Shown here one piece after another: positions 21,445 through 40,860 of a stretch of DNA of 49,298 nt. Location: sequence record MZ501053. One strand, 5' to 3'. The notes beneath the pieces are model-generated. The model was not told where the DNA came from, searched no databases, and saw only the letters and a program-made list of their open reading frames with translations. Origin of the DNA: Escherichia phage BrunoManser. The translations under genes were made by a program, and so were the position numbers. Numbering within the stretch: the first letter of the stretch is position 1; each line of letters begins with the position of its first letter.

Positions 21445-21535
21445 AAAATTTGAGCAACTATGGAGCGCACTGATATACGCTAACTCCTTATAATATATAG
21501 ATAATAATAATAATCTTAAATTGGTTTTTTATATG
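21445..21535 (+). repeat. AT-rich direct repeat, copy A
   Basis: AAAATTTGAGCAA...CGCTAACT...TATAATATATAGATAATAATAATAAT...TTAAATTGGTTTTTTATAT; about 75% identical by eye to copy B. Confidence 0.55.
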
Positions 21536-21779
21536 TGTAATTATCATGTAATCAATGTAAGCGGTGTAATCGTGTTTTTTGTGATGCGTTCAAATTGATA
21601 GTGATTCTCTATGGAATGATGCGTTATCGATGGGGTGTCTTGATATTTATCTATGGGGCGATTACAAGCTCACATCTTATACATGCAACTTTACGGGATT
21701 CATGGCATTGAATTACATAGAGATTTTGTGTAATCGTATTTTTTCTAAGAAATGATTACGAACAATTACAGCGTAACTG

Positions 21780-21807
21780 TTGACTAAATGTCCCTACTGG
21801 CTATAAT
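21780..21807 (+). promoter_or_regulatory. strong sigma70 promoter (TTGACT-N16-TATAAT) upstream of recombination genes
   Basis: Near-consensus -35 and -10 about 30 bp upstream of ATG at 21838, followed by leader CATCATCAACGAAGGAG. Confidence 0.6.
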
Positions 21808-21837
21808 GACCACATCATCAACGAAGGAGATAAACGA

Positions 21838-22908
21838 ATGTTTAAAGTGCTCACCAACAAACAGCTTACCAACGACGAATATCACGATCCGAAAGGATGG
21901 GCGGCGGAGTACGTTAGCGGATCAAGCCTTGCCGATATATTCAATACCTGCCCGGCGAACTGGCGATTCAAGAAGAATAAGGTAACTAAGGCGCTTGAAT
22001 TCGGTACGCAATCGCACACCAACTTCGAAAGCAAAAAACTGTTCGAAGCTGCATACAAACGTTGCCCGGCTCCGTCTGAGTTTAAGGATCTGATCACGTC
22101 GCAAGCCGGGTTAGCCGCTAAGTTAAAATCATTCGGCCTGAAAGGTACTTCAGGGAAGCAGTATCCCGACCTTTTGAAAATGATGGTTGATTGTGGCGAA
22201 ATGCTTAACGTTCAATACCTGATCGAAATGGTGGCGGAAGCCGAAGCGCGGGCAGAAGGCAAGCAGTTAGTAGACGCCGAAGCATACGACGCTTGCGTTA
22301 CAATGCGAAAAGTTCTTGAATCAATCCCGGAACATGACGCTTGCATCAACAGTGAAACAGCAATGCACGAAGTTTCAATCTTCGGAACGATTTCCGGCGT
22401 GAAGGTTAAGGTTCGACTCGATCACTTAGATTTACGCGAGAACGTCGAAGCGCGTGTGCTGAATGGTTATTCTGACGAAGGAGATCCGATTTATGAAACC
22501 GTTATTCATCCTGAAGCGCTAGTGATTACAGACTTCAAGACGACGGCAAGCGCTAACCCTCTGGAGTTTCCGCGATTGGCATTCAATCACGGCTACTACT
22601 TGAAAATGGCGTTACAACATGACTTACTGAAGCGAGCAATTCAGGCCGGGGCATTCGAAGGAGTCGATCCGAATATCCCGATCGTTGTCCGCCTTCTGGC
22701 GCAAGAGAAAAAGGAACCGTTCTTGCCGATGGGCTACCGCATGACGCCGGAACAACTTCGAATCGGACGCACACAATACGTTAGCGTGGTGCATACGTAT
22801 AAAGAATGCGTAGAATCGGATGTATGGCCTTCATACGCTAACGGCGCGGCTGAGGTCGATTTAGAAACGCCACAGTGGGTAAGATACCAGTACAAACACG
22901 CATTGTAA
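21838..22908 (+). CDS. recombination exonuclease (PD-(D/E)XK family)
   Basis: 356 aa; D...E...K-type nuclease signature (LDHLD ... ITDFKT); precedes ERF and SSB genes; driven by consensus sigma70 promoter. Confidence 0.5.
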   Translation: MFKVLTNKQLTNDEYHDPKGWAAEYVSGSSLADIFNTCPANWRFKKNKVTKALEFGTQSHTNFESKKLFEAAYKRCPAPSEFKDLITSQAGLAAKLKSFGLKGTSGKQYPDLLKMMVDCGEMLNVQYLIEMVAEAEARAEGKQLVDAEAYDACVTMRKVLESIPEHDACINSETAMHEVSIFGTISGVKVKVRLDHLDLRENVEARVLNGYSDEGDPIYETVIHPEALVITDFKTTASANPLEFPRLAFNHGYYLKMALQHDLLKRAIQAGAFEGVDPNIPIVVRLLAQEKKEPFLPMGYRMTPEQLRIGRTQYVSVVHTYKECVESDVWPSYANGAAEVDLETPQWVRYQYKHAL

Positions 22909-22912
22909 TAAA

Positions 22913-22927
22913 CAGCACAAATAGCTA
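22913..22927. promoter_or_regulatory. degenerate palindrome cAGCA-N5-AGCTA + hairpin (GATATAAT in loop)
   Basis: AGCACAAATAGCTAAAC then GACGGGGTGATATAATTCATCCCGT then leader and RBS of erf. Confidence 0.5.
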
Positions 22928-22990
22928 AACATATGAAAGACGGGGTGATATAATTCATCCCGTAAACAAAACCAATCAGGAGATAACAGA

Positions 22991-23644
22991 ATGATTCTTT
23001 CCCAACAATCCGATCAAATCCTTCCGGCTCTGTTTAAGGCGCGTGGCAAGTTCGTAAAGGCCAAGAAAGACAAGCAAAACACACACCTGAAAAACAAATA
23101 TGCGACGCTTGATTCTATGATGGAGGCCGTTACCCCAGCATTGACGGATAACGGGATCATGATTATGCAATCCATGCTGGACACAAGCACCGACACAACC
23201 TTCCATCTTGAAACGATGCTTATTCATGCGGAAAGCGGTCAATTCGCCCGGTTCTTTATGTCAATGCCAATCGCGAAGCGTGACCCGCAAGGCGTAGGAT
23301 CTGCAATGACATACGCACGACGTTACGGACTGGCGGCGGCATTGGGCATTAGCCAAGCGGACGACGACGCGCAATTAGCCGTTAAATCCGCGGCGGATTG
23401 GAAAAAGGATCTTGACGAATGCGAAGACTTCGAACAATTGAAAGATGTTTGGGCGACAGCATTCAGGCAGTGCGACGCGGCAAACAAGGCTATTGTCCAA
23501 GACCACTACAACAAATTGAAAGCGAAGTTTGAAGTTGGTAAAGCGCGAGGATTCCGCCCTGCTGAAAAACCAGAACAGAAAAAACCAGTTGAACCGGAAC
23601 ATCGACAGACGGTACAATCTAAATCAATCAACGATTTCGAATAA
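22991..23644 (+). CDS. erf: ERF-family single-strand annealing protein
   Basis: 217 aa; N-terminal region (KNKYATLDSMMEAVTPALTDNGIMI) resembles ERF family; between exonuclease and SSB. Confidence 0.55.
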   Translation: MILSQQSDQILPALFKARGKFVKAKKDKQNTHLKNKYATLDSMMEAVTPALTDNGIMIMQSMLDTSTDTTFHLETMLIHAESGQFARFFMSMPIAKRDPQGVGSAMTYARRYGLAAALGISQADDDAQLAVKSAADWKKDLDECEDFEQLKDVWATAFRQCDAANKAIVQDHYNKLKAKFEVGKARGFRPAEKPEQKKPVEPEHRQTVQSKSINDFE

Positions 23645-23651
23645 TATCAAC

Positions 23652-23675
23652 GGGCGGCGAATGTCGCCCATTTTT
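23652..23675 (+). terminator. hairpin with U-tract after erf
   Basis: GGGCG-GCGAATGT-CGCCC followed by ATTTTT. Confidence 0.45.
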
Positions 23676-23690
23676 ACGGGAGATTAAAGA

Positions 23691-24101
23691 ATGCACGTAA
23701 TTACAGGCGAAATCCGCAAGGAACCGAAAACATTAGATCGCAATGGCTCTACGGTTTACATTGTTGAACTGGCAGAAAGTTACAAACCGCGAGACGGCAA
23801 CCGTGAATACACGAACTACACTTTTTTCTTTAGTGACGGTGGCAAACCCGGTTTAGCGCAATGGTATGCTGAAGCATTCCAGATCGGTAAGGTCATTTCA
23901 GTATCGTGCGAAACGCTGAAGATTTCCTCACGCGAGCACAACGGAACGATTTACAACACGCTTCAGGCGGCAGACTTCCCGCGACTGATATTTAGCCAGC
24001 GCGGAGAAAGTCAAGCACCACAACAGCAAGGCGGCGGGCAACAGCAACAACAGCGACAGCCTAAACCGCAACAGGGATTCGACGACGATATCCCATTCTA
24101 A
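23691..24101 (+). CDS. ssb: single-stranded DNA-binding protein
   Basis: 136 aa; Gly/Gln-rich linker and acidic C-terminal tip DDDIPF typical of bacterial/phage SSB. Confidence 0.7.
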   Translation: MHVITGEIRKEPKTLDRNGSTVYIVELAESYKPRDGNREYTNYTFFFSDGGKPGLAQWYAEAFQIGKVISVSCETLKISSREHNGTIYNTLQAADFPRLIFSQRGESQAPQQQGGGQQQQQRQPKPQQGFDDDIPF

Positions 24102-24105
24102 CAGC

Positions 24106-24137
24106 AAAAATAAAGGAGCCTTTCGGCTCCTTTTTTG
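24106..24137. terminator. bidirectional terminator between ssb (+) and tail fibre (-)
   Basis: AAAAATAAAGGAGCC-TTTC-GGCTCCTTTTTTG. Confidence 0.65.
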
Positions 24138-25922
24138 TTACTTCAGCAATAGCGATTCAAGCTTCGCTAATCTTTCTTCGAGTTCATCGACTCGACCTTC
24201 TGCTTTGTCTGCTCGTTCCTTCTGTTCGTTGAATGCGTTAACCAACAATGCAGTAACGCCAGCATAGTTCACGCCTTTCATACCTTCCTTTTTAGCATCA
24301 GGCGTCTTTCCATTATCTTCAAGCTGGACAACAGCTTCTGGCAAAACAAATTCAAGATCCTGAGCAATTAATCCAGCCTCAACGCTGTATAACGATCTGT
24401 CAGTTTCATGCAATTCATTACGTTTATAGTACGTATATCCGACAAGCCTTTCCACGCGCTCACTTGCTGACTCGATTTTTTTGAGATTTGTTTTCATCCT
24501 CAAGTCGGATGTACTTGTCCAGTTTGCCGCCATAGCCACTCCGTCATCAGTAAACCTGAATAAAGCACTCCTAACATAAAGGTGTGTCTCACACATGCCG
24601 GAGTCATATCTAGTACAATCTACGCCAGTTACCCAATCAGCGCCCAACTGCACAGCCTTGAAAATGTTGACGGCGGAGTCAGACCCGGGAAGCTCCACAA
24701 TAACGCCAGCCGCCCTATCACGCCACGCAGCAAAATAACCCCCCTCAACCTCCCCAGCAACAAATGCCCCGTTTCCAGTTGTTCTGCGTACATCAACCCT
24801 CAATGCTTCTTTTTCTTCCGAAGATAGGCTTCTGATTCGTCCGCTAGCGTTAATTTCGTTAACGTTATTCAAGTCTCCTCTTTCATTAATTTGTAGATAG
24901 TTTGTTCCACCACCCTCTCTGGCTGTCTGAATTGTTGTTTTTGCAACCCCATTCTGCATTTCATGATAAATCCTTGAATACGAAACTTTAGATCCATCTG
25001 GATTATTATTTCGTAAAGCAATAATCCCTGAAGTTGTGCCATTCTTAGCCTCAAACTCAATACCACCAAATACTGGAACTTGATTTGCAGATAAACCCAA
25101 ATTGCTACGAGCGGCGTTAACGTCGGTTAGCCCTGATAGGTTCCCATCCTTGCGTAACAGCGCATCCGGGTTAACACTATTTGCGAACTGTTCCGCCTGA
25201 TTCCTGAATGCTTGCGACTGATCGCGGGCAGTTTCAGATCCAGACTGTGCCGTTTGCGCCGCGTTTCTGGCGTTTTCTGCTTGCGTAACCATGCCGCCAA
25301 TATCCGACTTCGCATTGTTGACGTCGATAACAGCCTGATCGCGAGTCTTGTTTACAGTATTAACCGCGTTCGTTTGTGCTGTACCAACTTCGGACAGCGC
25401 GTTATCTTTAATCTGTTGCGTCTGGTTCTTGAATCCTTCCGCCTCATTGCGATAGAAAAGCGATTCGTTCGCATATGTCCCGGCCTGAGTCTTCGACGCT
25501 TCCGCTTGTCCTTTGAACGTTTCCGCGTCATTCCTGAATGTCTGCGTTTCGTTGCGAAGGGTAATTATCTGTTGCAGGTCGAAATCTTTAAAGAATTCGA
25601 TCGCCTCTTCGATAACCGTTTCTTTGCTCTGATAGTATCGAAGCGTTTCCGCAACGTCTTGCGCCATGCCGTCAACGGTTAACGAGTCATTCAACAGGAT
25701 CACATATTTGGATTGCGCCACCGCTTCGCCGTCCGTAGTAATGGCGGTCATTTCCGTATCGCTATCGATCGTGTTGATTACCGCCAGCTTCAATGGTGTA
25801 GTAAGGAAAACTATAGTTGCGCCTTTGCGGATCAGGGATAACGGTTCGCGCCATTGAGTACCGACGCCCGTTACTTGTCCTTCCGCCGTCATTGACGCTT
25901 CGCCTTGTCTGTATAAAGCCAT
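24138..25922 (-). CDS. tail fibre protein with C-terminal intramolecular chaperone (peptidase S74-like) domain
   Basis: Start set to internal ATG after RBS GGAGG (MALYRQG...); Q/N/A-rich fibre repeats; C-terminal ~120 aa ([23 protein letters not shown]...) resembles endosialidase-chaperone autoprocessing domain ending in a coiled coil. Confidence 0.65.
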
Positions 25923-25942
25923 TTGTAAATCCTCCAAGTAAA

Positions 25943-25957
25943 TAGCACTATTTGCTA
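25943..25957. promoter_or_regulatory. palindrome TAGCA-N5-TGCTA
   Basis: AATAGCACTATTTGCTAAA immediately upstream of RBS of the - strand tail fibre gene. Confidence 0.5.
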
Positions 25958-26002
25958 AACCATGATTTTAGCATTGTGTTATGCGGGCGGCAATAGGGCA
26001 AT

Positions 26003-26024
26003 AAAAAACCCGCCGAAGCGGGTT
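26003..26024 (-). terminator. intrinsic terminator after primase gene (- strand)
   Basis: Reverse complement reads AACCCGC-TTCG-GCGGGTTTTTT. Confidence 0.6.
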
Positions 26025-26967
26025 AGAGTAAATCACTTGCATTAAATATTTTTCGTTGCATTCCAGATCGGAAGCCGCCTTCGTTCGGAATGATAACTTT
26101 CAATTCCCTGTCGTCCGCCATGTAAAGCGTATCACGATCTCCCGGCGTACATGCGACGCGCATTTCCCGTTCTCCTTTGTAGCGATAGGCTACCATTTCC
26201 AGATTTTCAGGAGTAAAGCACGTCCAGACTTCTTGACCTGTTGCAAGGTGTACATGTTGCGAGTCGATCCAGTTTAGGCAAAGGTAAATCGCCTTGTCGG
26301 TTGAACCACTCACGACAACGGAGGCGGCTGTATATTTCTTCGCGTAAAACGATTCGCGCCCTTCTTCGTCGATAAACAGGATATTGCAAAATTCATCGTC
26401 TAATCCATCTTCATGCACCATGCGACACGGCAACGCATGAATAAGCGATTCCCCACCATTCTCCAGCGTTTTTACGCCCACATCGTAAGATTCATCGCCC
26501 GGAAGATAAATCCCCTCAAACATCGACAGCGGCGTCGTGTCGCGCTTCTCTGTTCGCTCCATTACTGCGACGCATTGTTCATGCTCCGCCATTGCAACGC
26601 CGACATTGTGAACCGGAGTTCGGCGGGCTTTTTTGTTGGCCTTAATAACGTATTCTTGCGGAACCTTACCCAAAAACCGCCCTAAGATGTTAATCACTTC
26701 GCTGTATTCGCACCCGGTAAGCTTCATCATCCAGCCAATCCCGGTATCGTTGCCGCAAGAGTTACAGATCGCGCCACCGTCGCCAGCTTCCTTTAATTTA
26801 TCCGTCCATCTGAAGCGGTCTTTGCCGCCGCAATTCGGGCAAGATTGATGCTTTTTGTTGAACACGTCATTAGGTAGATTGCAGATCGATTGTAACGCCT
26901 CCCGCCACATTCCTTTCATGTACGGCAAAACGTCTTCTTTCTGGTACATCATGTTATCTTCGTGCAT
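26023..26967 (-). CDS. DNA primase (zinc-binding)
   Basis: 314 aa; CPNCGG...CNSCGN zinc-finger pair near N-terminus; adjacent to helicase; intrinsic terminator downstream on - strand. Confidence 0.5.
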   Translation of the reverse strand: MHEDNMMYQKEDVLPYMKGMWREALQSICNLPNDVFNKKHQSCPNCGGKDRFRWTDKLKEAGDGGAICNSCGNDTGIGWMMKLTGCEYSEVINILGRFLGKVPQEYVIKANKKARRTPVHNVGVAMAEHEQCVAVMERTEKRDTTPLSMFEGIYLPGDESYDVGVKTLENGGESLIHALPCRMVHEDGLDDEFCNILFIDEEGRESFYAKKYTAASVVVSGSTDKAIYLCLNWIDSQHVHLATGQEVWTCFTPENLEMVAYRYKGEREMRVACTPGDRDTLYMADDRELKVIIPNEGGFRSGMQRKIFNASDLL

Positions 26968-27026
26968 CTTCTTTGCTCCAATAAAAAACGCGTAACGAGA
27001 TTCTAACCCGCTACGCGTTCATTGTT

Positions 27027-27473
27027 TTAGCTATTTGTGCTTTGCGTCGTTTCGTCTTTTCGAACAACGCGCATTAACTTGCGATTCTTGCAACGCTTTT
27101 CTAAGCACTTGCCGTTACTGTCGAACTTCAGGTCGAAGCGAAGCCAGCTTGCGCGATAACCTTTACAGCCTTGCCGACGGTATGCACGATGCGCCGCCTC
27201 CGCGCCTTGCCATGAAATCATACCGCGAACTTTCCATTCGTTCACGTTCTGATTGGTCACTTTCAGCGCCTTAGCTGTTGCGGACGGCGAACCGTAATAT
27301 TCGATCAATGCGTCAAGTCTGGCTCGTAGTCCGGCGCGAACTTCATCCTTCAGGATGTAGAATCCGCATCGCTGGCGGGGCTTGATATCTTTCCCGCGTC
27401 GTGTACCATTATTCCCGTTGATGTGGCGACGGTCGATTTCACCAGTTGATTCTGCAATACGTTTCATCGTCAT
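27027..27473 (-). CDS. putative HTH DNA-binding protein (Cro/YdaS-like)
   Basis: Start set to internal ATG with RBS GAGG (MTMKRIAE...); helix-turn-helix-like segment GSPSATAKALKVTNQNVNEWK; Arg/Lys-rich. Confidence 0.4.
   Translation of the reverse strand: MTMKRIAESTGEIDRRHINGNNGTRRGKDIKPRQRCGFYILKDEVRAGLRARLDALIEYYGSPSATAKALKVTNQNVNEWKVRGMISWQGAEAAHRAYRRQGCKGYRASWLRFDLKFDSNGKCLEKRCKNRKLMRVVRKDETTQSTNS
27028..27042. promoter_or_regulatory. degenerate palindrome + hairpin module upstream of primase (- strand)
   Basis: Minus-strand reading AGCACAAATAGCTAAAAC then AACGCGTA...GTTAGAAT...TACGCGTT hairpin then RBS GGAG. Confidence 0.45.
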
Positions 27474-27566
27474 AGTAAATTCCTCAATAGCATTTTTTGT
27501 TAAAACTGTTTCGTCAATGCGTGTATTATACAATCAACGAAGCATCTACGCAAAGGATTAAAATTC

Positions 27567-29618
27567 GTGAAAATTAGCAACGAAACACGACAGTATTTCA
27601 AAACTCAAAACATCAAAAAGCAGATCGAAATGCTTGGCGAAGAGTACATACGACGCACACAAGAACGTTTCACCGTAGGCGATATCAAGCCGTATGAATA
27701 TCAGGTTGCGGCATACTTCGAGATCGCAAAGCGCTTAGGTAAAGACTACGAACACCCGTTCTACGTGAAAGCGTCGGTATCGGCTGGCAAAACAATCATC
27801 TTCGCGATGGTTGCGAAACAGTGTCAAGCGATGGGTTTAAAAATGATGGTGCTTGCCCGGCAGGGTGAAATCGTCGATCAGGATAGCGAAGAGATCGATA
27901 ATTTCGGCGTTCCTAACTCTATCTTTTCCGCGTCGCTGGGTATCAAGTCTTGTCACTTCCCGATCGTAGTCGGTTCCGAAGGTACTGTCGGTAATGGCCT
28001 GTTTAACGAGCTGTCAGACTTCGTGCCGCACGTAATCGGGATTGATGAATGTCATCAGGTCGATTGGGAGGACGTAGCGAAAGCGATTGAGGGCGACGAA
28101 TCTTACGAACAAATGACGGCGGATAAAGGTCAAATCGTAATGAATGGCGATATTCCGCTGATCGGTAAAGACGGTTTACCTGTCACCGGGACGAAGCGTT
28201 CACAGTACACCGTAATCATTGTCGAAATGATGCGTCGTTGTCGTGAGGTTCACGGTCACGAATTGCGAGTATTCGGAATGACCGGATCGGAATATCGCGG
28301 AGTTGTTCCGATTCTTGTCGAAAATCCGAAGATGGTCGGATTCTGGCGTGAGCAGGTAACGAACATTGATACCAACTACCTGATCGAATTCGGTTCCGTT
28401 GTGCCGACAGTATTCGGATCTACTTCAGGCGTTCACTACAACTACGACAGCTTCACGGCATCCAGCGAAGACGGCGTAGCGGACTTCAGCGACAAAGACT
28501 TGAAAAAGATGGAAGCCGAAGCGCTGGCGAACAAGTCTTTAACCGAACAGATTATGCACATGGTCGCAAAGGAGGCGGAGAAGCGGAACGCGGTTCTAAT
28601 CACTTGCGCCGGGCAAAGGCATTGCAAAGAAGCCGCCGCAGCACTACCGCCCGGAAGCACTTACGCGATCATTACTGACAAGACGAACGCGAAACAGCGA
28701 CAAGCGATATTAGACGACGTTCGCGCCGGGAAGATTAAGTACACGTTTCAGGTTATGGCGCTTACTACTGGCGTAAACGTGCCGAATTGGGATTTTTCTG
28801 TAATCCTCCGCAAGATCGGTTCGCTTACCTTACTGATTCAGCTTTTAGGGCGCGGAATGCGACTACTGAAGAAGTGGCAGATTGAAGACGGAATGGTGAA
28901 GACAGACCATCTTGTTTGGGACTTCGCCGGGACTATGGACGAATTAGGGCAACTTTATTTCGATCCGATACTTGAGCAAGCGCAATACCAACGACGCTTT
29001 GAAACTGGTAAAGATCCGAAGAAATGTGAGCTATGCGGACACGAAAACAGCTTTTACGCCCGCCGTTGCGTTAACGTGATCGATGGAAAACGATGTGAGC
29101 ACTTCTGGACATATCAAACGTGCGAAGACCAGAAGGACGAAAAAACGGGCAAGATCCTTGTAAAAGGTTGTGGGGCGAAAAATGACGTTGTGGCGCGTGT
29201 CTGTCGTTGTTGTGACGTGTCGTTAGTAGATCCTAACCTGAAGTTATCCGGCAAGGCGTACACGAAAAATGATTGGTACGACGTTAAAAAGTTCGAAGTG
29301 CAGTTGACCAAAAACAGTAAAGGAATAATATTCCATTACGTGTTAGATAACGGCGAAGGTGAGTTCAACGCATACGAACGATTCTTCCCTGAATCCGAAG
29401 CGAAAGTGTGCGGTACGTTATGGAAAACTAAAGGCGTGTTGCCGCACGTATCAGATCCGAAGATGCGTAAATACTTCATCGGCATGAAGAACGCAATCAA
29501 GATCATGCAGTACGCGCACCACATCGCCGCCCCGGTTCGCGTGACGCACCGTAAGAACGCGAAGAAAGAAGACTTAATCAGCCGTAAAGATTTCGGCATG
29601 GAGGAAATACCAGAATGA
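27567..29618 (+). CDS. ATP-dependent helicase (SF2, DExH-type)
   Basis: 683 aa; Walker A ASVSAGKTIIF and DECH box (VIGIDECHQ); C-terminal Cys-rich region; likely non-ATG (GTG) start. Confidence 0.7.
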   Translation: MKISNETRQYFKTQNIKKQIEMLGEEYIRRTQERFTVGDIKPYEYQVAAYFEIAKRLGKDYEHPFYVKASVSAGKTIIFAMVAKQCQAMGLKMMVLARQGEIVDQDSEEIDNFGVPNSIFSASLGIKSCHFPIVVGSEGTVGNGLFNELSDFVPHVIGIDECHQVDWEDVAKAIEGDESYEQMTADKGQIVMNGDIPLIGKDGLPVTGTKRSQYTVIIVEMMRRCREVHGHELRVFGMTGSEYRGVVPILVENPKMVGFWREQVTNIDTNYLIEFGSVVPTVFGSTSGVHYNYDSFTASSEDGVADFSDKDLKKMEAEALANKSLTEQIMHMVAKEAEKRNAVLITCAGQRHCKEAAAALPPGSTYAIITDKTNAKQRQAILDDVRAGKIKYTFQVMALTTGVNVPNWDFSVILRKIGSLTLLIQLLGRGMRLLKKWQIEDGMVKTDHLVWDFAGTMDELGQLYFDPILEQAQYQRRFETGKDPKKCELCGHENSFYARRCVNVIDGKRCEHFWTYQTCEDQKDEKTGKILVKGCGAKNDVVARVCRCCDVSLVDPNLKLSGKAYTKNDWYDVKKFEVQLTKNSKGIIFHYVLDNGEGEFNAYERFFPESEAKVCGTLWKTKGVLPHVSDPKMRKYFIGMKNAIKIMQYAHHIAAPVRVTHRKNAKKEDLISRKDFGMEEIPE

Positions 29619-33608: not shown

Positions 33609-33730
33609 CTGATACAAATCAAATCACTATCCTAAAGGGGGCTTTATGCCTCCTTTTTGTGCTGTTCCTTTCCTGTCCACCTTCCGTTATTATACCCCCA
33701 CTATCTTAAAACTTTATTGTGGGGTATTTC

Positions 33731-33946: not shown

Positions 33947-33948
33947 TT

Positions 33949-34446
33949 ATGAGCGCAATCAAGAACACTGTAGCGGCGACAGTAATTTCCGCCGCCCTTG
34001 TTCTTGTGCCGGGCTTGCTTGAGGAAATCGAGGGCATCCGGTACAAGCCGTACAAGGATATCGCCGGGATCTGGACGGTCTGTTCTGGCATTACCGGAAA
34101 GGATGTTATTTTAGGCAAGACGTACACGAAGAAAGAGTGCGACGCGCTACTTTACAAACACATCGCCGTAGCGAAGCGGCACGTTGATAGCGCGGTGAAA
34201 GTGCCTATTCCTGACACCATGCTGGCGGCTCTGTATAGCTTCACGTTCAACGTTGGCGGCGGGGCATTCCGTAAGTCAACCTTACTAAAAGACGTCAACG
34301 CCGGGCGATTCACGAAGGCTTGTTCGCGTCTTTATGATTGGGTTTACTTCTACAACCCAAAAACAGGGAAAATGGAAAAGTCACGCGGCCTTAAAAACCG
34401 TCGCGACATTGAATATAAATTCTGCATGAAGGAGTTAACGAAATGA
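33949..34446 (+). CDS. SAR endolysin (T4 lysozyme-like, GH24)
   Basis: 165 aa; weakly hydrophobic Ala/Gly-rich N-terminal segment ([14 protein letters not shown]) followed by E-x8-D-x5-T catalytic triad pattern ([16 protein letters not shown]). Confidence 0.7.
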
Positions 34447-34847
34447 AAGATTTTGCATTAGCAACATTTTGCGCATTGTGCATTACATTACCCGCGATCG
34501 TGCTGTCGGGCTGTTCAATGAATCCGCTGGATTCCCTGATTGGTAATAAGCCAGATGTGACGGCGCAAGTCGGCGCGGAGAACGTAAAACAGACTGTCGG
34601 CCTGACAGCTAAACAGGATCAGAAGAACGAAACGTCGGTCAAAGATTCCAACGTCGGCAAGGTGGATTCCTCCACTAAGAAGACGGAAAGCATTAAGGCC
34701 GGAACCATTCAGGCGGAACGCATCGAAGTAAACAACGGTAGCGAAGGCGCTGTATTCTGGTTCGGTGGCGGCATGATTGCGGCGTGGTTGATTTGTGCGG
34801 GGCTGTTGTGGTCAATCAGTTACAGGAAACAAAATAAGGAGGCTTAA
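34443..34847 (+). CDS. unimolecular spanin (lipoprotein N-terminus + C-terminal TMD)
   Basis: 134 aa; lipobox LSGC at N-terminus and C-terminal TM segment ([15 protein letters not shown]), as in T1-type u-spanins; overlaps endolysin stop. Confidence 0.55.
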
Positions 34848-34860
34848 AGCCTCCTTTTTT
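34836..34860. terminator. bidirectional terminator after spanin (+) and ORF 34859-35107 (-)
   Basis: AAGGAGGC-TTAA-AGCCTCC followed by TTTTTT; stem overlaps spanin stop codon. Confidence 0.65.
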
Positions 34861-35107
34861 ATGCGAGAATGTCGATACTTTCCGCGACCTTCACTTCATC
34901 AGGGATTCCGCATTCTACGGCGTGGATTGTGACAGCCTTAGTTACAATGATCGGATCGGCTGCAAAGTCATACCCAATTACGTTTAACGTTGCACAGATC
35001 GCGCGGTTACGTGCTGCAAACGGTACGCAATCCGGGATTGTAACAGTTTCGACTTTGCGTTCGTCGGTGCGGGCATTTAATTTGAAGTTAACGCGGTAAG
35101 TAGCCAT
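34859..35107 (-). CDS. hypothetical protein
   Basis: 82 aa; preceded on - strand by palindrome/hairpin module and RBS AAGGAG; ends at bidirectional terminator. Confidence 0.45.
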   Translation of the reverse strand: MATYRVNFKLNARTDERKVETVTIPDCVPFAARNRAICATLNVIGYDFAADPIIVTKAVTIHAVECGIPDEVKVAESIDILA

Positions 35108-35165
35108 TTTGCTTTCTCCTTTTGTTTCGATGAAATGATAATACCCGGAATTAACCGGGTAGTTT

Positions 35166-35180
35166 TAACAAAAAGTGCTA
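35166..35180. promoter_or_regulatory. palindrome module (leftward orientation)
   Basis: Minus-strand TAGCACTTTTTGTTAAAAC + CCCGGTTAATTCCGGGTATTATC hairpin + leader CATCGAAACAAAAGGAG before ORF 34859-35107. Confidence 0.55.
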
Positions 35181-35381
35181 TTGGTATCGCGTCACGCTCA
35201 ATATGCAAACGCCGTCGCCGTCCGCCAGATTGTGACACGTTTCACCGGACGCCCGCATCGAAGACAACAGAAGAGACATTAGCGCCGTGTTGAATTCATC
35301 TTCTGAAAGCTGGTGCGTTGCGCAAAATTCGACGCTCCGATCTATCAACATTTCGACCTTTCCCGAACAAATCTTCATCAC
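35178..35381 (-). CDS. hypothetical protein (start uncertain)
   Basis: 67-aa ORF overlapping 3' end of 35296-35700 by 86 bp in another frame; its stop TAG lies in a palindrome module; real start may be a later ATG. Confidence 0.25.
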   Translation of the reverse strand: MMKICSGKVEMLIDRSVEFCATHQLSEDEFNTALMSLLLSSMRASGETCHNLADGDGVCILSVTRYQ

Positions 35382-35700
35382 TCAATTCCTCAATGTGCAT
35401 CATTTCATAATTGTATCTGTTCGCGTAACCTTCCACGCAAACGAGCTTCATCATTAGCGGGCGCTTGATACGCCCACGGCAACTATAAACGCCTCCAGTA
35501 CAATCTAAATAACCTTCAGTCATGCACCGGGCGCAAAACTCCTTCGACATAATGCTAACGAATTCGCGATGCGGTAACCCAGCCGCCGCCGCCATTCTTT
35601 CGGATTCCTTATGCTGGAATATGAATTTCGCGATGTGCTGTCGCGTGTACCGATCGTAACCTTCGCAGAATTTAAACAGTTCAAGTAACAGCATCATCAT
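35296..35700 (-). CDS. hypothetical Cys-rich protein
   Basis: 134 aa; several Cys (CEGY, CARCMTEGYLDCTGGVYSC); follows the 521-aa gene. Confidence 0.4.
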   Translation of the reverse strand: MMMLLLELFKFCEGYDRYTRQHIAKFIFQHKESERMAAAAGLPHREFVSIMSKEFCARCMTEGYLDCTGGVYSCRGRIKRPLMMKLVCVEGYANRYNYEMMHIEELSDEDLFGKGRNVDRSERRILRNAPAFRR

Positions 35701-35706
35701 TTCACC

Positions 35707-37272
35707 TTATAGGAAACATGGATTCACATAAACAACTTCGTCAACTACGCAAACATGGTTCATTCGCTCTAACTCAATCAACAGCGTCTCGATACGTTCG
35801 CCGACCTTCTGTTGTCCGTTGAACGGGGTAATGTTGCGACACTTCGAAATCAGGCTATGGATCTGTACACGACCTTTTGAACGACGCGCCATTCCCGTAA
35901 TCACTTCCGACAGCTTGCGGGATTCGGCTTCGTCACCTGCAAAGCCCGCCGCGTTCGCCGACGACAGATACGTTTTCGACAGTTCGTTGAATATCATGAT
36001 CGCTTCCTGCATTGTGTCTAAATCGATCTCACGATTTGCCCGGTTCGGGTTTTCACCTGTCCAGTTACGGATCGCGTGAAGCACTGAAGCGATACGGATA
36101 ACGTGTTTATCGAACTTGCCTAAATGACCGCGTAACATAGAGTGCGAATAGCGCCCGCCCGCCGCGAAGCTGGATTCCATTTCCTGACGCGCCAAGTTAA
36201 GCGCCCGGTTCGCGTTCCGGTTTAGCGTGAATACGACTTTCTCTTCCTTCATGATATTGTGAATCAAGCGATAATATTTGCTAACTAACGATTGCTCTAC
36301 GGGTTTATATACCGCGTCGCCGTTTTCGTCGCAAAGTGTACGAGTACCTAACAACGGCTCTTCACGAACGAGCAAGAAACGTTCCGATACCCCGATCCCG
36401 CGTTGCCCGGCATCCATGATCCCACGTATCGTTTCATCCTGAGCAATAACGCAGATCGCGCCAACGGGACGAATTGACAGGTTGTTATCCTGATTGGAAC
36501 GCGCTACTTCCATGTGGTTCATATCCCACGCTTTAAGGATTAGTTCGCTGTTCGCCTTCTTATCAGTTCCGCCATACGTCAAGCCAAGAAGCGTATTTAT
36601 CGCCGTTGCTTCGTCCGATATTACTGAGAAGTTACCTTGCGCCGCAGCGACCTTCGCCAAGCCTTCAGGAGTCGGATCGGATACGGCAAACACGACGTTA
36701 GCCATTTTCTTGATCTTCTCTTCTAACTTCTCTTTTTCCTCGTAAAGCGCTACGGCTGAATTGCCTTTTACGTCATTCTTGATCTCGCGTTCGACGTTGC
36801 GAAGTTGCCCCATCAGTCGAGAACGTTCGGCTTTACGCGCTTCGTTAATGCGGTCAATTTCGGATCGCATCGGGTTAATCGCGGCGGAGTTAATCGCGGA
36901 TTTACCTGTTGACGGCGGTTGACTGATTACCATGTAAAGCGCGGTCGGTTGTTCTTCGCCGTGATACTCAACCCAAAAGCGCCCCAGCATAGCGGCGGAC
37001 ATACAGCCGATAAAATGCGCGTATGCAGATGAAACAGGGAATTGGACGGATTCAGCCTTTGCTTTCGCGTATTCGTAAACGAGGTTGTCGCCAGCAATAG
37101 AGATAAGCGGGAATTGATCGTTTCCGCTGTTAATCTGTTCCGGCTGGCTCCAGAACGATCGAGAATCAGGATAGCCATTTTCACGAATAGCTAACGCGAC
37201 AGGGTTAATCCCGTTCGTATTGGCGATTTCAATGATTTGACTAACTGAAAGTTTAGGTTTACCGAAAAGCAT
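35707..37272 (-). CDS. putative P-loop NTPase (DUF3987-like, replication/host-takeover associated)
   Basis: 521 aa; deviant Walker A (ISQPPSTGKSAI) and acidic hhhhDE-like segment (ICVIAQDE); largest gene of leftward operon; family recalled from memory only. Confidence 0.45.
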   Translation of the reverse strand: MLFGKPKLSVSQIIEIANTNGINPVALAIRENGYPDSRSFWSQPEQINSGNDQFPLISIAGDNLVYEYAKAKAESVQFPVSSAYAHFIGCMSAAMLGRFWVEYHGEEQPTALYMVISQPPSTGKSAINSAAINPMRSEIDRINEARKAERSRLMGQLRNVEREIKNDVKGNSAVALYEEKEKLEEKIKKMANVVFAVSDPTPEGLAKVAAAQGNFSVISDEATAINTLLGLTYGGTDKKANSELILKAWDMNHMEVARSNQDNNLSIRPVGAICVIAQDETIRGIMDAGQRGIGVSERFLLVREEPLLGTRTLCDENGDAVYKPVEQSLVSKYYRLIHNIMKEEKVVFTLNRNANRALNLARQEMESSFAAGGRYSHSMLRGHLGKFDKHVIRIASVLHAIRNWTGENPNRANREIDLDTMQEAIMIFNELSKTYLSSANAAGFAGDEAESRKLSEVITGMARRSKGRVQIHSLISKCRNITPFNGQQKVGERIETLLIELERMNHVCVVDEVVYVNPCFL

Positions 37273-37328
37273 TCTTAGATCTCCTTATTGAGCGTGGTAG
37301 ATTATACCCCGCCCATACTACACGCTTT

Positions 37329-37343
37329 TAGCAATAAGTGCTA
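37329..37343. promoter_or_regulatory. palindrome module (leftward orientation)
   Basis: Minus-strand TAGCACTTATTGCTAAAAG + ...GGGGTATAATC... + RBS AAGGAG before 521-aa gene. Confidence 0.55.
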
Positions 37344-37347
37344 TTTG

Positions 37348-37764
37348 TTACAGGTACTTCGCTTCGAAAGTGGTTCCGTCCGCAATGCTGAAGCCGACTT
37401 CTTCCCTAAAGAGCGTCCATCGACAGCCGTCCTTATCGAAGATGTAACCCGCAACGCCACCTAACGCGCGTCCGCTTTCCACTTGATAACGCTTGCCGAC
37501 AGTGAACGATTTCTTAATCGGGTTTTTGTGGTCAAGCCCGGTACACTTCAGCGTTTTAGTTTTCAGCTCGATGAAAGTCGCGTTCAACGGTTCGTCTAAC
37601 GAATTTTCGCCGTGTACCGTCATTTTATCCAACTTATGCCAGCCTTTCGGCGCGAACTTAACGAACATGCTTCCTTCGTTGTCGATGCGTCCTTTATAAA
37701 GATTGTTAGCAGTGAAGAAGAGTTTCATTGTTGATGAAGTGCATTTCAGGTTAATAGATTTCAT
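37348..37764 (-). CDS. hypothetical protein
   Basis: 138-aa ORF in leftward operon; palindrome module 4 nt after its stop. Confidence 0.45.
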   Translation of the reverse strand: MKSINLKCTSSTMKLFFTANNLYKGRIDNEGSMFVKFAPKGWHKLDKMTVHGENSLDEPLNATFIELKTKTLKCTGLDHKNPIKKSFTVGKRYQVESGRALGGVAGYIFDKDGCRWTLFREEVGFSIADGTTFEAKYL

Positions 37765-37846
37765 CGCATCATTCCTTCTGATTGGTTATCTTGAATAAGG
37801 CCACTTTATCAAATGACCTTACGGCAATATTAACAAATCGTGCCAT

Positions 37847-38059
37847 TTACCACGGAATATAATCTTCGCCTGGAATTGAATTATCTTCCGACGTCATCAC
37901 GAAATCCGGATCTAATTCGCTTTCGTCATCCATGTTCATATTGCCTAACGCTTCGTCTAGCGACACTTCTTTATATGCCACCTTCAAGCAAAATTCGTGA
38001 TTCAATCCAGAGTCAAGCGCGGTAAAATAACGAGTCCAAAAGTTATCTTGTTTCATCAA
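37847..38059 (-). CDS. hypothetical protein
   Basis: 70-aa acidic ORF in leftward operon. Confidence 0.4.
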   Translation of the reverse strand: MMKQDNFWTRYFTALDSGLNHEFCLKVAYKEVSLDEALGNMNMDDESELDPDFVMTSEDNSIPGEDYIPW

Positions 38060-38284
38060 TTAACTCCACGAATTAATATAAATTGAGTTAGTTTCAAGCA
38101 TGGCGCGAACGTCCGCCATTGTTGCGTTTACTAAGCGAGCGCCCGGAATCGTGCCGACTACGTTATTGCCGCTACGGCTTTTGTTAATGGTGATTTGATG
38201 ATATCCAGCCGCGCGATCCAGTTTTACAATTACCTTCCCTTTTGCCGCGTAGTGCTTAAGAATATTTTCAATCTTGATACTCAT
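38060..38284 (-). CDS. hypothetical protein
   Basis: 74-aa ORF; palindrome/hairpin module and RBS AAGGAG upstream. Confidence 0.4.
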   Translation of the reverse strand: MSIKIENILKHYAAKGKVIVKLDRAAGYHQITINKSRSGNNVVGTIPGARLVNATMADVRAMLETNSIYINSWS

Positions 38285-38341
38285 TGTTATTTCTCCTTTG
38301 TTTCGATGGGGTAACTATATCAAGATACCACGTTGTTGTTT

Positions 38342-38356
38342 TAGCAATTTGTGCTA
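38342..38356. promoter_or_regulatory. palindrome module (leftward orientation)
   Basis: Minus-strand TAGCACAAATTGCTAAAAC + ...GATATAGTTACCCC + CATCGAAACAAAGGAG. Confidence 0.55.
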
Positions 38357-38509
38357 TTTGACACGATGCCCGGTAAATGGATAATGCGCTACGTCTGCGA
38401 CACTATATCGATCTGAAACAATCCAGCTACCATCTTCCATAAGGCGGCGAACATGTTGCCCCACGATCGAATACCATGCTTTCGTTTCGTGATTATAATA
38501 TCGAATCAT
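38354..38509 (-). CDS. hypothetical small protein (51 aa)
   Basis: Manual ORF; ATGA overlap with upstream stop; its TAG stop is the first half-site of palindrome 38342-38356. Confidence 0.3.
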   Translation of the reverse strand: MIRYYNHETKAWYSIVGQHVRRLMEDGSWIVSDRYSVADVAHYPFTGHRVK

Positions 38510-38736
38510 TCTTCCACCACGTCAAAAGATGCCACACCCAAAACAACATACCCGGACGGATACGCGCTAATCGCTTGCCAGTTACCGCCGCCGCGCTTTA
38601 CCCTGTCGCCAATGACGAATAGTTCGTCACGGACGCCTGAAATTGATAGCGCATCATATACGCCGCCTTTTACGAATGGCTGTTTCTGTTTGCCGTCGCC
38701 AATCTGTATCGCTTTACTGCATTTCAGTTTAATCAT
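38506..38736 (-). CDS. hypothetical protein
   Basis: 76-aa ORF coupled to neighbours. Confidence 0.4.
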   Translation of the reverse strand: MIKLKCSKAIQIGDGKQKQPFVKGGVYDALSISGVRDELFVIGDRVKRGGGNWQAISAYPSGYVVLGVASFDVVEE

Positions 38737-39059
38737 TGCTTATTATCCCACGTTGCGTACTGAACGGATAAAACCACTTTCCCGGTTTTCTTCATATCTT
38801 CGTAACTGTTATGCTGCAACGGGCTGAAGCGGATTACTTCTTCGCCTGTCGGTTCGTCGATAAGGATTCGTGCGCTTTCGGTGTAGACGTATTTCACACG
38901 ATCTTCGAAATCAGCACCAACTTTTCGTAATGACGCCGCCCTAGCTCGCTCCAATACGTGCGGCTGTAAATCTTCGCCAGCTTTCAATACAGCGTCGGAA
39001 ATGCTTCCGCCCCAACCAATCAGGCGCTTGACGTTGATTTCGTACAATTTGCCGATCAT
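38733..39059 (-). CDS. hypothetical protein
   Basis: 108-aa ORF coupled to neighbours. Confidence 0.4.
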   Translation of the reverse strand: MIGKLYEINVKRLIGWGGSISDAVLKAGEDLQPHVLERARAASLRKVGADFEDRVKYVYTESARILIDEPTGEEVIRFSPLQHNSYEDMKKTGKVVLSVQYATWDNKQ

Positions 39060-39280
39060 AATTTAATCTCCTGATATTCGATGAAGTCTTGAACGTACAT
39101 ACATTCGCGCGGGCTTTCCTGTCCTTTGAGGACTTCGCACCCATTGTTAAACAGCAAGTAACAGCCGCAAAGTGAACCGGGGAAATGCTGTTCGACAATA
39201 GCGATCCCGTTACAACGTCCGCCGCCGAATCTATGCGGGAAGTCATACGCGCGACAACGGCAAGTTACTTGCTTTCTCAT
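39056..39280 (-). CDS. hypothetical Cys-rich protein
   Basis: 74 aa with 8 Cys (CRCRAYD...CNG...CGCYLL...C...C), candidate metal-binding. Confidence 0.4.
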   Translation of the reverse strand: MRKQVTCRCRAYDFPHRFGGGRCNGIAIVEQHFPGSLCGCYLLFNNGCEVLKGQESPRECMYVQDFIEYQEIKL

Positions 39281-39469
39281 TTAGTCGGATTCCATAACGA
39301 TTACGGGTTCCATAATTTCAAGCTGGATCTTGAAATCTTCCATAAACATTTTGCGTTTCAACAGGTCTTCGTAAGTGTCGGTCGCGAGGCTGGCGCTATC
39401 ACCTGCATAGCAAACCGACTCCTGTTTCGTGGCGCGACTCTTTGCAACGACGCGGTATTGTTTCTTCAT
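39281..39469 (-). CDS. hypothetical protein
   Basis: 62-aa ORF. Confidence 0.35.
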   Translation of the reverse strand: MKKQYRVVAKSRATKQESVCYAGDSASLATDTYEDLLKRKMFMEDFKIQLEIMEPVIVMESD

Positions 39470-39738
39470 TCGATAATCTCCGTAGTAACGCGGACTTTGC
39501 GTTCTTTCACCACAAGGCGAACAATCGTTAAATTTCTGTCGTCATAGCGATAGTGATCGCCTACCTTTTCCATTAACGACAGGAAGTTCGGATCTGTCAA
39601 GAACTCTACGACGTCTTCGTCGCGCGGTACGTAAACGGGTTGTTTGTCGCCCAAGCATTGCACCGCGATAGTGTCCGGGAGAAGAGTCATAACGGCGATG
39701 TATTCCACTGATTCGGTAACGGTCTTGTTCTGTTCCAT
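39466..39738 (-). CDS. hypothetical protein
   Basis: 90-aa ORF; module and RBS upstream. Confidence 0.4.
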   Translation of the reverse strand: MEQNKTVTESVEYIAVMTLLPDTIAVQCLGDKQPVYVPRDEDVVEFLTDPNFLSLMEKVGDHYRYDDRNLTIVRLVVKERKVRVTTEIIE

Positions 39739-39800
39739 TTTTGTGATCCTCTTGTCTCGTTTCGATGGGGTAATGATGCCACACCACCCCGATTGTGTTT

Positions 39801-39815
39801 TAACAAAAAGTGCTA
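39801..39815. promoter_or_regulatory. palindrome module (leftward orientation)
   Basis: Minus-strand TAGCACTTTTTGTTAAAAC + GGGGTGGTGTGGCATCATTACCCC + CATCGAAACGAGACAAGAGGA. Confidence 0.5.
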
Positions 39816-39816
39816 T

Positions 39817-40005
39817 TTAGTACCCGCAAAACGTTTTACGCCATTGTTTCAGCTTTTCCCAAATCAGGAAATCGCGATTGCTAAACGGATCGCCCCAAAA
39901 GCGAAACAGGTTGTCAGTATAGAAATCGACCTTGCGTTCTACGGTATCGGAAAGTGTCTTGCACTGCCCTTTATTGGTGAATCGCTTTAAGATCTTCACT
40001 GTCAT
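39817..40005 (-). CDS. hypothetical protein
   Basis: 62-aa basic ORF; ATGA-coupled to upstream small ORF. Confidence 0.4.
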   Translation of the reverse strand: MTVKILKRFTNKGQCKTLSDTVERKVDFYTDNLFRFWGDPFSNRDFLIWEKLKQWRKTFCGY

Positions 40006-40145
40006 TTCTCCATCTGTTCTAAAAGTTTTTCTATCACCTCGATTCGGTTGTAGTGGTGATTAAACTCCCGGACGTCTACTTCGTACCCCATCGCTTCGAT
40101 CGCGTTAAGGTGAATGCCGATTGCGCTCCTCAGTCTGCGAATCAT
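40002..40145 (-). CDS. hypothetical small protein (47 aa)
   Basis: Manual ORF bridging 40142-40462 and 39817-40005 with ATGA overlaps at both ends. Confidence 0.3.
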   Translation of the reverse strand: MIRRLRSAIGIHLNAIEAMGYEVDVREFNHHYNRIEVIEKLLEQMEK

Positions 40146-40432
40146 AAGTCCTTCCACAAGTGACGGTTAGCGCCGATGTAATCCAGCATTTCGCGAACGT
40201 GCTTTTCATCCTTCAGTGTGCCGGGTAACTCTCCTTTCAGCTCTTGCGGCAACCACACGTTACCGTTATAGGTGAAAGAACCGTTCTCATTTGCCTGATA
40301 GGTGAACATCCATTCGCAATCGTTATTCAGATCCCACACTGCCAGAAAGTCACCTTCGCCAACGTTCTCGATCGTAACGTCTAATCCGCGCTTGCGTGCA
40401 AAGTTGATTGTCGTTTTGCTGATAGTTGTCAT
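40142..40432 (-). CDS. hypothetical protein (first gene of leftward operon)
   Basis: Start set to internal ATG (MTTISKTT...) after RBS AAGGAG and palindrome/hairpin module. Confidence 0.45.
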   Translation of the reverse strand: MTTISKTTINFARKRGLDVTIENVGEGDFLAVWDLNNDCEWMFTYQANENGSFTYNGNVWLPQELKGELPGTLKDEKHVREMLDYIGANRHLWKDL

Positions 40433-40489
40433 TGCTGTATCTCCTTCGTTTCGATGAAGCAACTATACCCGAACCACCCCGCCGATGTG

Positions 40490-40504
40490 TTGCAAAAAGT
40501 GCTA
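40490..40504. promoter_or_regulatory. palindrome module (leftward orientation), first gene of leftward operon
   Basis: Minus-strand TAGCACTTTTTGCAA + CGGGTATAGTTGCTTCATCGAAACGAAGGAG before ATG at 40432. Confidence 0.5.
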
Positions 40505-40585
40505 TTCCTGATCCGATACGATTATTCCTCGCTTTTGGAATAACTGGAATAATGAGTGATTACTCATGATTGCAAATGACAAGTT

Positions 40586-40629
40586 ATGATTATTGCTTGA
40601 TTGTTCGCAATCGTGATGATTATTGCTTG
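40586..40629 (+). repeat. direct repeat ATGATTATTGCTTG x2
   Basis: Two exact 14-bp copies (40586-40599 and 40616-40629), 30 bp apart, in the leader of the leftward operon. Confidence 0.5.
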
Positions 40630-40685
40630 TGAAGCATTAAATTGGAGAGAGGTTATAGAGTGAAACGGTCTTCGCCACCAACTTT

Positions 40686-40700
40686 TAGCAATTCGTGCTA
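40686..40700. promoter_or_regulatory. palindrome TAGCA-ATTCG-TGCTA in divergent control region
   Basis: Perfect copy ACTTTTAGCAATTCGTGCTA with no adjacent long ORF. Confidence 0.45.
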
Positions 40701-40767
40701 CGTGTCTAAATTACGCTTGTAATCTTTGTCTAAAATTTGCTAGATTTGTCACTTAGACAAAATGATG

Positions 40768-40860
40768 AAAATTTGAGCAATCCTAAGAGCTGGCCGATTT
40801 AGCGCTAACTATATGATATATATAATAATAATAAGTTTTAAATTAGCTTTTATATAGTAG
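40768..40860 (+). repeat. AT-rich direct repeat, copy B
   Basis: AAAATTTGAGCAA...GCGCTAACT...ATATATATAATAATAATAAG...TTTTAAATTAGCTTTTATAT; same orientation as copy A, 19.3 kb away. Confidence 0.55.

Follow-up and report, generated by a model that had tools for sequence, protein, structure and literature searches.

Why would a compact phage genome keep the same AT-rich, non-coding element in two places 19.3 kb apart? The question is raised by Escherichia phage BrunoManser (sequence record MZ501053), whose 49,298 bases, the whole stretch of DNA that was analysed, make up the complete, circularly permuted genome of a T1-like phage (Drexlerviridae). An earlier note on this sequence had described an element of about 90 bp, present once between cor and the recombination genes and once in the early control region, and the gene layout, taken from open reading frame lists and the annotations of phages SRT8 and T1, agrees with this placement of both copies. 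Copy A (21445..21533, plus strand) lies in intergenic region A (21293-21837, 545 bp) between the divergent units of cor and recE, and copy B (40768..40856, plus strand) lies, also between divergent transcription units, in intergenic region B (40463-41145) of the early region, which adjoins the deposited T1 left end. Here we show that each copy forms the core of a non-coding module of ~430 bp and that the two modules are paralogous, and we tentatively read these modules as replication-origin-type elements, either two origins or one origin with a partner site.

Smith-Waterman alignment of the two intergenic regions joined the copies on the same strand over 94 columns, of which 73 match, 11 are mismatched and 10 contain gaps, an identity of 78% of columns and 87% of aligned pairs. 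The score of 72 compares with 22.8±2.7 (maximum 39) in 500 dinucleotide shuffles, with 21.1±3.9 (maximum 38) when shuffling was confined to blocks of 20 nt so that the local A+T profile was kept, and with 29 for the reverse-complement alignment. Because both types of shuffle stay below the observed score, the similarity is not compositional, and a low-complexity artefact, the outcome that the earlier note had named as refuting its claim, is ruled out. The pairwise alignment that it had proposed as a check confirmed the element in the same orientation and at the positions reported, and the ordered blocks AAAATTTGAGCAA, CGCTAACT, an (ATA)n tract and TTAAATT..TTTTATA were all found in both copies. 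There is no third copy, as the next best match of either one on both strands of the whole genome scores at most 29. Gap-tolerant alignment extended the homology beyond 90 bp, to collinear blocks over ~430 bp. The leftmost block is TGTAAyyTTTGTCTA at 21403 and 40718; to the right the blocks continue through an array of TGT repeats and a second shared block, ATCTATGGGGCGATTACA..CACATCTTATACAT in module A (21644..21686, plus strand, ~110 bp right of the core) and ATATCTCTATAGGTGCTTACATCT..CATCTTATACAGGGGCGATTAC in module B (40972..41022, plus strand), up to the Shine-Dalgarno sequence of the rightward gene, whose start codon lies 350 bp from the core in A and 340 bp in B.

The centre of each module is extreme in composition and stability. 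AT core A (21488..21547) and AT core B (40806..40865) rank first and second in A+T among the 60-bp windows of the genome, with 53/60 each, while the next richest reaches 46/60; the core proper measures 50-60 bp at ~88% A+T. By nearest-neighbour energies the cores are also the two least stable 80-bp windows (z ~5.0 each, next 3.1), the one at core A starting at 21480 and lying ~5 standard deviations above the genome mean. Top rank in both A+T and instability is what an unwinding element of an iteron-type origin would display, and the single strands of the element fold worse than their shuffles (z +0.7 and +1.8), as expected of a region that needs to stay open. The top two A+T windows and the least stable windows fall on the same two sites in the complete genomes of SRT8, T1, TLS and Rtp, which stand for four genera in three subfamilies (TLS Tempevirinae; Rtp Braunvirinae). 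Across three Sertoctavirus genomes, an 86-nt run over core A (21478-21563) and a 55-nt run in core B (40809-40863) are invariant, the latter within a region where invariant positions make up only 85% of the whole. In the SRT8 group of phages, the flanks of the cores diverge whereas the cores themselves stay unchanged.

On both sides of the cores we identified short repeated words at frequencies far above chance, a further property of iteron-type origins. TGTAAT/ATTACA occurs 11 times in the 545 bp of region A, where 0.21 would be expected (11 of 30 genome-wide), and GTAATC/GATTAC occurs 7 times against an expected 0.56, so that the iterons noticed earlier around copy A, in both orientations, are borne out; region B holds six of the seven genome copies of TGTCTAA. 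Module A opens with a left cluster (21379..21434) of five TGTAAY sites in both orientations, including TGTAACTTTTGTCTA, and continues beyond the core with a plus-strand array (21534..21582; TGTAAT, TGTAAT, TGTAAG, TGTAAT and onwards, spaced by 9-11 nt) and with distal TGTAAT/GATTAC sites (21660..21770) that reach the -35 hexamer of the recE promoter. Module B opens with a left cluster (40703..40760) of three TGTCTA(A) sites, one of them inverted, plus TGTAATCTTTGTCTAA. Its right array (40867..40906, plus strand; TGTATA, TGTCAC, TGTATA and TGTAAG at spacings of 13, 9 and 9) aligns with that of module A, and its distal TGTCTAA sites (41054..41125, plus strand) overlap, then follow, a weak rightward promoter-like site (41054-41082, plus strand, TTGTCT-17-TATTAT). 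In module A the minus-strand site at 21429 faces away, across the core, from the plus-strand sites at 21536, 21547 and 21565, and in module B the left words (TGTCTA) differ from the right words (TGTATA, TGTCAC and TGTAAG). The one-stranded array right of the core is general: 14 of 15 representative sequences, covering both regions, have it, with 5.1 TGT per 70 nt against 0.89 expected and a modal spacing of 9 nt, and more repeat copies abut or overlap rightward early promoters.

The repeat words themselves change from lineage to lineage. In this phage they are TGTAAT in A and TGTCTAA in B, the latter with two TGTAATCTTTGTCTAA composites; in T1 they are TGTAAC(A) in A and CGATTAAC in B; TLS has GAACA / TGTTCAC in both regions, Rtp has GTTACG / GTTACA, and Webervirus has AATCTTACC. 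The module repeats of TLS (L113), TGTTCAC / GTGAACA / AAAAAGAACAAA, lie at 28707-29117 and at 49708-49902 plus 1-588, and they resemble the type I iteron of satellite phage P4 (TGTTCACC), a likeness that may be due to chance. Other small elements accompany the modules. The word (A)CATCTTATACA / GCTTATACAAC recurs in both of them (21676-21689, 40990-41010 and 41085-41096), and CTTATAC, found three times in region B against 0.03 expected, constitutes a third repeat type that is like a DnaA box without matching it. A second small AT box, TATATATACAGT, stands ~90 bp right of core B (40948-40962) and is kept in the SRT8, T1 and EF3-1 lineages, with counterparts at about 355-368 in T1 (L062) and at about 1669-1682 in L095.

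Each module, from left to right, comprises repeats in mixed orientation, the AT core, a same-strand TGT array at about one helical turn and, ~100-200 bp beyond this array, distal repeats that abut the early rightward promoter. Judged by its layout, this combination of least stable DNA, lineage-specific repeats on both sides and divergent promoters is the anatomy of an iteron-type origin. The earlier note had left four options (a promoter upstream or activator site, a nucleoid-protein site, paired origins or a small-RNA locus), among which paired origins fit this anatomy best, while protein binding, melting of the core and any role in replication are what we infer from it. If the modules act in this way, a lineage-specific phage DNA-binding protein would occupy the repeats on both sides of the core, and the core would melt, aided by negative supercoiling between the divergent transcription units that bracket it. 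The DUF3987 helicase and the Zn-ribbon primase of the phage would then enter with host polymerase, and the same repeat-binding protein, at the promoter-proximal repeats, might feed back on the early promoters. The genome encodes a DUF3987 MCM-like helicase (35707-37272, Pfam DUF3987), a Zn-ribbon primase of 314 amino acids (26023-26967) with no fused helicase or DNA-binding domain, and an SSB; no polymerase was seen among the proteins of the genome that were scanned.

We next considered how widely the pair occurs. Searches with the element itself reached only its closest relatives: blastn in distant mode got no further than SRT8 and IME-JL8, an IMG/VR pattern scan returned only SRT8 plus chance matches, a scan with conserved words of region B gave mostly chance matches, and plasmids and E. 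coli genomes had no match. SRT8 (Escherichia, 94.5% identity) and IME-JL8 (Citrobacter, 91.8%) are the nearest relatives by megablast around copy A, and both are classed as Drexlerviridae, Tunavirinae, genus Sertoctavirus. Family-wide occurrence was traced by synteny, through 43 recE-anchored IMG/VR loci and complete genomes. All 43 loci contain an A+T core (50-55 of 60), which lies 328-389 bp upstream of recE in all distinct loci but one, the outlier having the most distant recE. The second divergent region likewise has an A+T core in T1, EF3-1, XJA18, two Klebsiella Webervirus phages, TLS and Rtp; in T1 this core is at positions 209-300, within the 2.8-kb terminal repeat. Core B of the present phage aligns with core A of T1 (CTATATrATATATATA.ATA.ATAATA..TTTAA.TTAGC.TTTATATA...TGTTGT.TA). 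The pair recurs in four genera; conservation in related phages was among the checks that the earlier note had proposed.

Comparison of 180-nt segments around the cores revealed a distinct evolutionary pattern. Within-genome A-B scores were 72 in this phage, 66 in T1, 61 in TLS and 141 in Rtp, whose two copies align over 123 nt without gaps at ~82%, and all cross-genus pairs, orthologous A-A and B-B pairs included, scored at most 60. Close relatives scored as expected (T1 against XJA18, 304 and 165), and, outside the genus, the best partner was the same-genome paralogue in 8 of 8 cases. Modules A and B evolve in concert within each genus, which implies that the copies are either homogenised by conversion or both fitted to one lineage-specific partner. 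Under either account they are equivalent units.

Known systems show what such a pair might be. Bacillus phage SPP1 has two origins of similar build, with direct repeats along with an unwinding element that is AT-rich, ~13 kb apart, and AT-rich islands are its strongest composition bias (PMC6316719). The present genome likewise has two similar modules kilobases apart, here 19.3 kb, and its cores are its top two A+T windows; the recombination genes serve a later mode of replication in SPP1, and module A adjoins recE/erf. The dual-origin build of repeats plus AT-rich region is found here, and the likeness to SPP1 is in layout only: there is no sequence or protein homology, the gp38 initiator, gp39 loader and DnaB-type gp40 helicase are without identified counterparts, and oriL of SPP1 is located within gene 38, while the two modules of this phage occupy intergenic DNA between divergent promoters. 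Nor is SPP1 known for family-wide concerted evolution of its origin pair.

In staphylococcal pathogenicity islands (SaPIs), lineage-specific iterons of 5-6 nt flank the AT-rich region of the ori, and an MCM-like self-loading helicase recognises them through its C-terminal winged helix (PMC9371898). The DUF3987 helicases, of which the phage encodes one, have been linked to MCM and are reported with a C-terminal winged helix (PMC4889955), and the SaPI arrangement of oppositely oriented iterons across an AT centre is repeated by ATTACA at 21429 and TGTAAT at 21536 in module A. Unlike the SaPI ori, which is single and directly downstream of rep, the two modules here are 3-14 kb from the helicase gene, and the C-terminus of the helicase could not be matched to the repeat type. 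A third comparison is offered by satellite phage P4, in which one initiator reads two separated iteron-bearing regions, ori and crr (cis replication region). According to its annotation in the T1 record, the primase resembles the alpha replication protein of prophage CP-933 and also the phi-R73 primase, and TGTTCAC of the TLS lineage is similar to the P4 octamer. The present arrangement differs from that of P4 in that the primase, with 314 amino acids, has no fused helicase or DNA-binding domain and in that both modules carry an AT core.

Several observations weigh against an origin function. The dominant repeats of A and B are not alike in this phage and in T1, and more than one repeat-binding protein may be involved. 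The repeats overlap or abut early promoters, as operators would. It is the exact sequence of the core that is conserved, the TATAAT box included, and not just its composition; since composition is all that a pure unwinding element needs, either a promoter or a reader with sequence specificity is indicated. The modules contain no DnaA boxes and no IHF consensus, GATC is at or below expectation, and GC skew tracks the coding strand and transcription only, which makes it uninformative as an origin marker. Finally, the C-terminal divergence of the DUF3987 helicase does not track the repeat type. It fits in T1, in IME347 and in this phage, and T1 and IME347 have TGTAAC repeats in common and more similar helicase C-termini; it does not fit in TLS or in Rtp, the latter having T1-like GTTACA repeats but a TLS-like C-terminus. 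As candidates for the repeat-binding protein we considered the DUF3987 helicase and a Cro-like regulator but could assign the role to neither, as the domain-wise divergence of neither follows the repeat type. PDB sequence searches with the two proteins returned nothing usable, including no relative of the helicase at the sequence level.

The main rival draws on these same points, namely the exact conservation of the core, the differences between A and B repeats, the operator-like siting of the repeats and the unassigned initiator. The modules might be hubs of early transcription control, in which a lineage-specific phage regulator, with the repeats as its operators, would turn the early promoters of both divergent regions on or off, and the core, whether promoter, upstream element or bent DNA, would arrange the nucleoprotein complex, with no direct part in replication. 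We regard this as somewhat less likely than paired origins. Both modules do stand between divergent transcription units, and concerted evolution would suit one regulator serving both regions. In region A the repeats (21754-21777) abut the -35 hexamer of a near-consensus sigma-70 promoter of recE (21780..21807, plus strand, TTGACT-16-TATAAT, 11/12), which forms the right boundary of the module and is kept in T1 and in TLS, where its counterpart is P51 (Table S1 of PMC11447400). In region B they overlap the TTGTCT -35 hexamer and the leader of the rightward site, and in TLS a GAACA repeat falls inside the spacer of promoter P01. Leftward sigma-70 matches of 9 of 12 occupy homologous positions in both copies of this phage, and the core carries at its left edge a TATAAT box (21489-21494 in A; TATGAT at 40812-40817 in B), the only such element conserved across genera, which is annotated as a promoter in the GenBank record of phage Chapo.

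These signals are, however, not matched by a conserved promoter. The cores of T1 and TLS contain no homologous -35/-10 pair, promoter-like counts are at or below those of shuffles, and a conserved sigma-70 promoter in the core was rejected, having no counterpart outside the lineage of this phage (T1 and TLS checked); the promoter or activator site proposed earlier is thus at most weakly favoured, by the 9-of-12 matches and the TATAAT box. Strong sigma-70 promoters are found ~300 bp rightward of the cores, and 21-nt repeats provide cor, as well as the leftward operon of B, with promoters of their own. Because the flanking genes have promoters elsewhere in both regions, the cores are not needed as promoters. 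Once these promoters are accounted for, 340-415 bp of non-coding DNA stay otherwise unexplained in a compact genome, and this extra length, with the least stable sequence of the genome, exceeds typical operator regions. Coding potential in the spacer between core and promoter was rejected by eye, as substitutions among three phages would be mostly non-synonymous. A third divergent region (27534-27566), moreover, has an early promoter and neither the core nor these repeats. Plasmid and phage initiators commonly autoregulate through their own iterons, and for this reason an origin and a transcription hub are not mutually exclusive.

A more elaborate version of paired origins, which we consider unlikely, would couple the modules as a pair read by one lineage-specific initiator. 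They might form a looped bipartite origin whose halves lie 19 kb apart, or one might serve as an early origin and its partner as a late origin or fork barrier, timing the change from origin-dependent to RecE/Erf recombination-dependent replication; an early/late switch of this type has been proposed for oriL/oriR of SPP1. Coupling would account for the concerted evolution across Drexlerviridae and for the siting of the copies, one by the recombination genes and the other by the packaging start, in the terminal repeat.

In a reading that is less probable still, the cores would serve host nucleoid proteins (Fis, H-NS, HU or IHF) as architectural sites and would bend or bridge DNA, for instance for the packaging start near B or for circularisation, or titrate a host factor. 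Such sites would suit the extreme A+T and the TGT/T-tract repeats phased at about one helical turn, which suggest curvature, as well as the position of module B, which is separated by ~200 bp from the left end of the T1 record and from the pac region mapped in TLS. On the nucleoid-protein option of the earlier note, one Fis-consensus match covers the AAAATTTGAGC block of copy A (21441-21455) and, read by eye, a 14-of-15 match covers the corresponding AAAATTTGAGC block of copy B. This phage has no IHF or DnaA consensus there, and the Fis matches are not kept between copies or genera. Module A is ~19 kb from the packaging region, and lineage-dependent change together with within-genome co-evolution would be unexpected for sites of host factors.

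Nor does recombination offer a good account of the pair. The similarity could be upheld by gene conversion through RecE/Erf alone, or the copies could be linkers for module exchange, with no shared sequence-specific function; same-genome copies are indeed more alike than orthologues, and RecE and Erf are encoded beside module A. We nevertheless consider this very improbable. All lineages examined retain the architecture (a core ~330-390 bp from the rightward gene, and flanking repeat arrays) although the sequences turn over, the cores stay unchanged where the flanks diverge, stretches of 90-125 bp at 78-82% identity would recombine poorly, and a crossover between direct repeats would delete 19 kb. 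Least probable of all is a small regulatory RNA or structured leader in each copy, as the earlier note had also suggested: a weak leftward promoter-like site in both copies would transcribe CGCTAACT and AAAATTTGAGCAA, but this site is not kept in other genera, Rfam returned nothing at gathering thresholds and one chance-level match at E<=1, RNAalifold on six copies predicted no consensus pairing for the minus strand and, for the plus strand, four pairs that do not covary, there are no terminator-like sites, and the strands fold worse than shuffles.

The modules have apparently escaped description. The 2024 reannotation of TLS identified no origin and found no iterons anywhere in that genome (PMC11447400), and the literature searched, whose coverage did not extend to the T1 genome paper (Virology 2004), contains no prior description of them. 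T1 is one of the seven original T phages, and its replication origin was not identified in the sources checked. The two defined modules of ~200 bp constitute specific, directly testable origin candidates for T1-like phages. If they are origins, they would be those of a large phage family that is important as an industrial contaminant, they would supply a natural set of initiator/iteron specificities that diverged between genera, and they would add to SPP1 a second pac-type siphophage with paired origins. If they are transcription hubs instead, they define the operator set of the T1-like early switch, which is equally uncharted.

The remaining features of the genome concern its layout and other repeats. 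A long plus-strand unit runs from 41146 through the genome end to 21027, comprising the small early genes, terminase, head and tail, and is followed by cor on the minus strand (21062-21292) and, across region A, by recE, erf and ssb (21838-24101). Beyond ssb, blocks of genes alternate in direction, the last being minus-strand genes up to 40462.

The most abundant non-coding repeat is distinct from the duplicated element. T1-like phages carry 21-nt direct repeats, aaATAGCACnnnTTGnTAAAA, that were described in TLS and whose function was treated as an open question (PMC11447400). In the present genome the repeat, aATAGCAC-N4-TGCTAAAA, has 20 sites, for example at 42105, 42659, 43248, 44301, 46886, 47360 and 47994 on the plus strand and at 35180, 37343, 38356, 39815 and 40700 on the minus strand. 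Like the duplicated element it is a repeated non-coding sequence, and both intergenic regions have one such repeat, at 21335-21364 (degenerate) and at 40683-40702, set apart from the element. The two differ in sequence, in copy number (20 against 2) and in position, as the 21-nt repeats precede genes and lie upstream, by a constant distance, of a -10-like hexamer (TATAGT, TATAAT, CATAAT or TAGAAT), whereas the duplicated element is not followed by a gene. The palindrome ATAGCAC-N4-TGCTAAA is absent from the element, and the 20 repeats genome-wide do not include it. The palindrome is centred at about -42, where class-II activator sites lie, with no usable -35, and the -10 is embedded in a hairpin whose stems vary (GGGGTAA/TTACCCC, GGGCTT/AAGCCC and GGGCTAT/ATAGCCC). 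From their sequence, the repeats and -10 boxes suggest a family of activator-dependent promoters. At 27488-27517 the plus-strand repeat before the gene for an SNF2-like helicase overlaps a minus-strand TTGACG -35-like hexamer of the gene for the Cro-like regulator (start 27470), and the arrangement would fit binding of the palindromic repeat, and autoregulation, by this conserved regulator.

The left part of region B (40484-40660) stands out in its own right. Its conservation at the DNA level reaches Klebsiella Webervirus, it is found at the ends of many deposited records, and it contains an inverted repeat, TTATTCC..GGAATAACTGGAATAAT, and ATGATTATTGCTTG twice, 30 bp apart (40587-40600 and 40617-40630). 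The first base of the T1 record, with which its 2.8-kb terminal repeat starts, falls inside the homologous first repeat, and the pac end of TLS has been mapped to the homologous region. This segment, ~200 bp from core B, is likely to be the pac or small-terminase site.

Two further repeat families belong to the late genes. The gene for a large tail protein (16575-19997) contains three 49-nt direct repeats exactly 99 nt apart (19220-19466), an in-frame periodicity of 33 codons. Three similar units of the late region, at 14359-14404, 16501-16546 and 49245-49290, each have a terminator hairpin (GCCCGCCTTGCGCGGGC with a T run) and, after it, an extended -10-like box, TGTAGAAT/TGTATAAT, an organisation that suggests repeated terminator-promoter cassettes.

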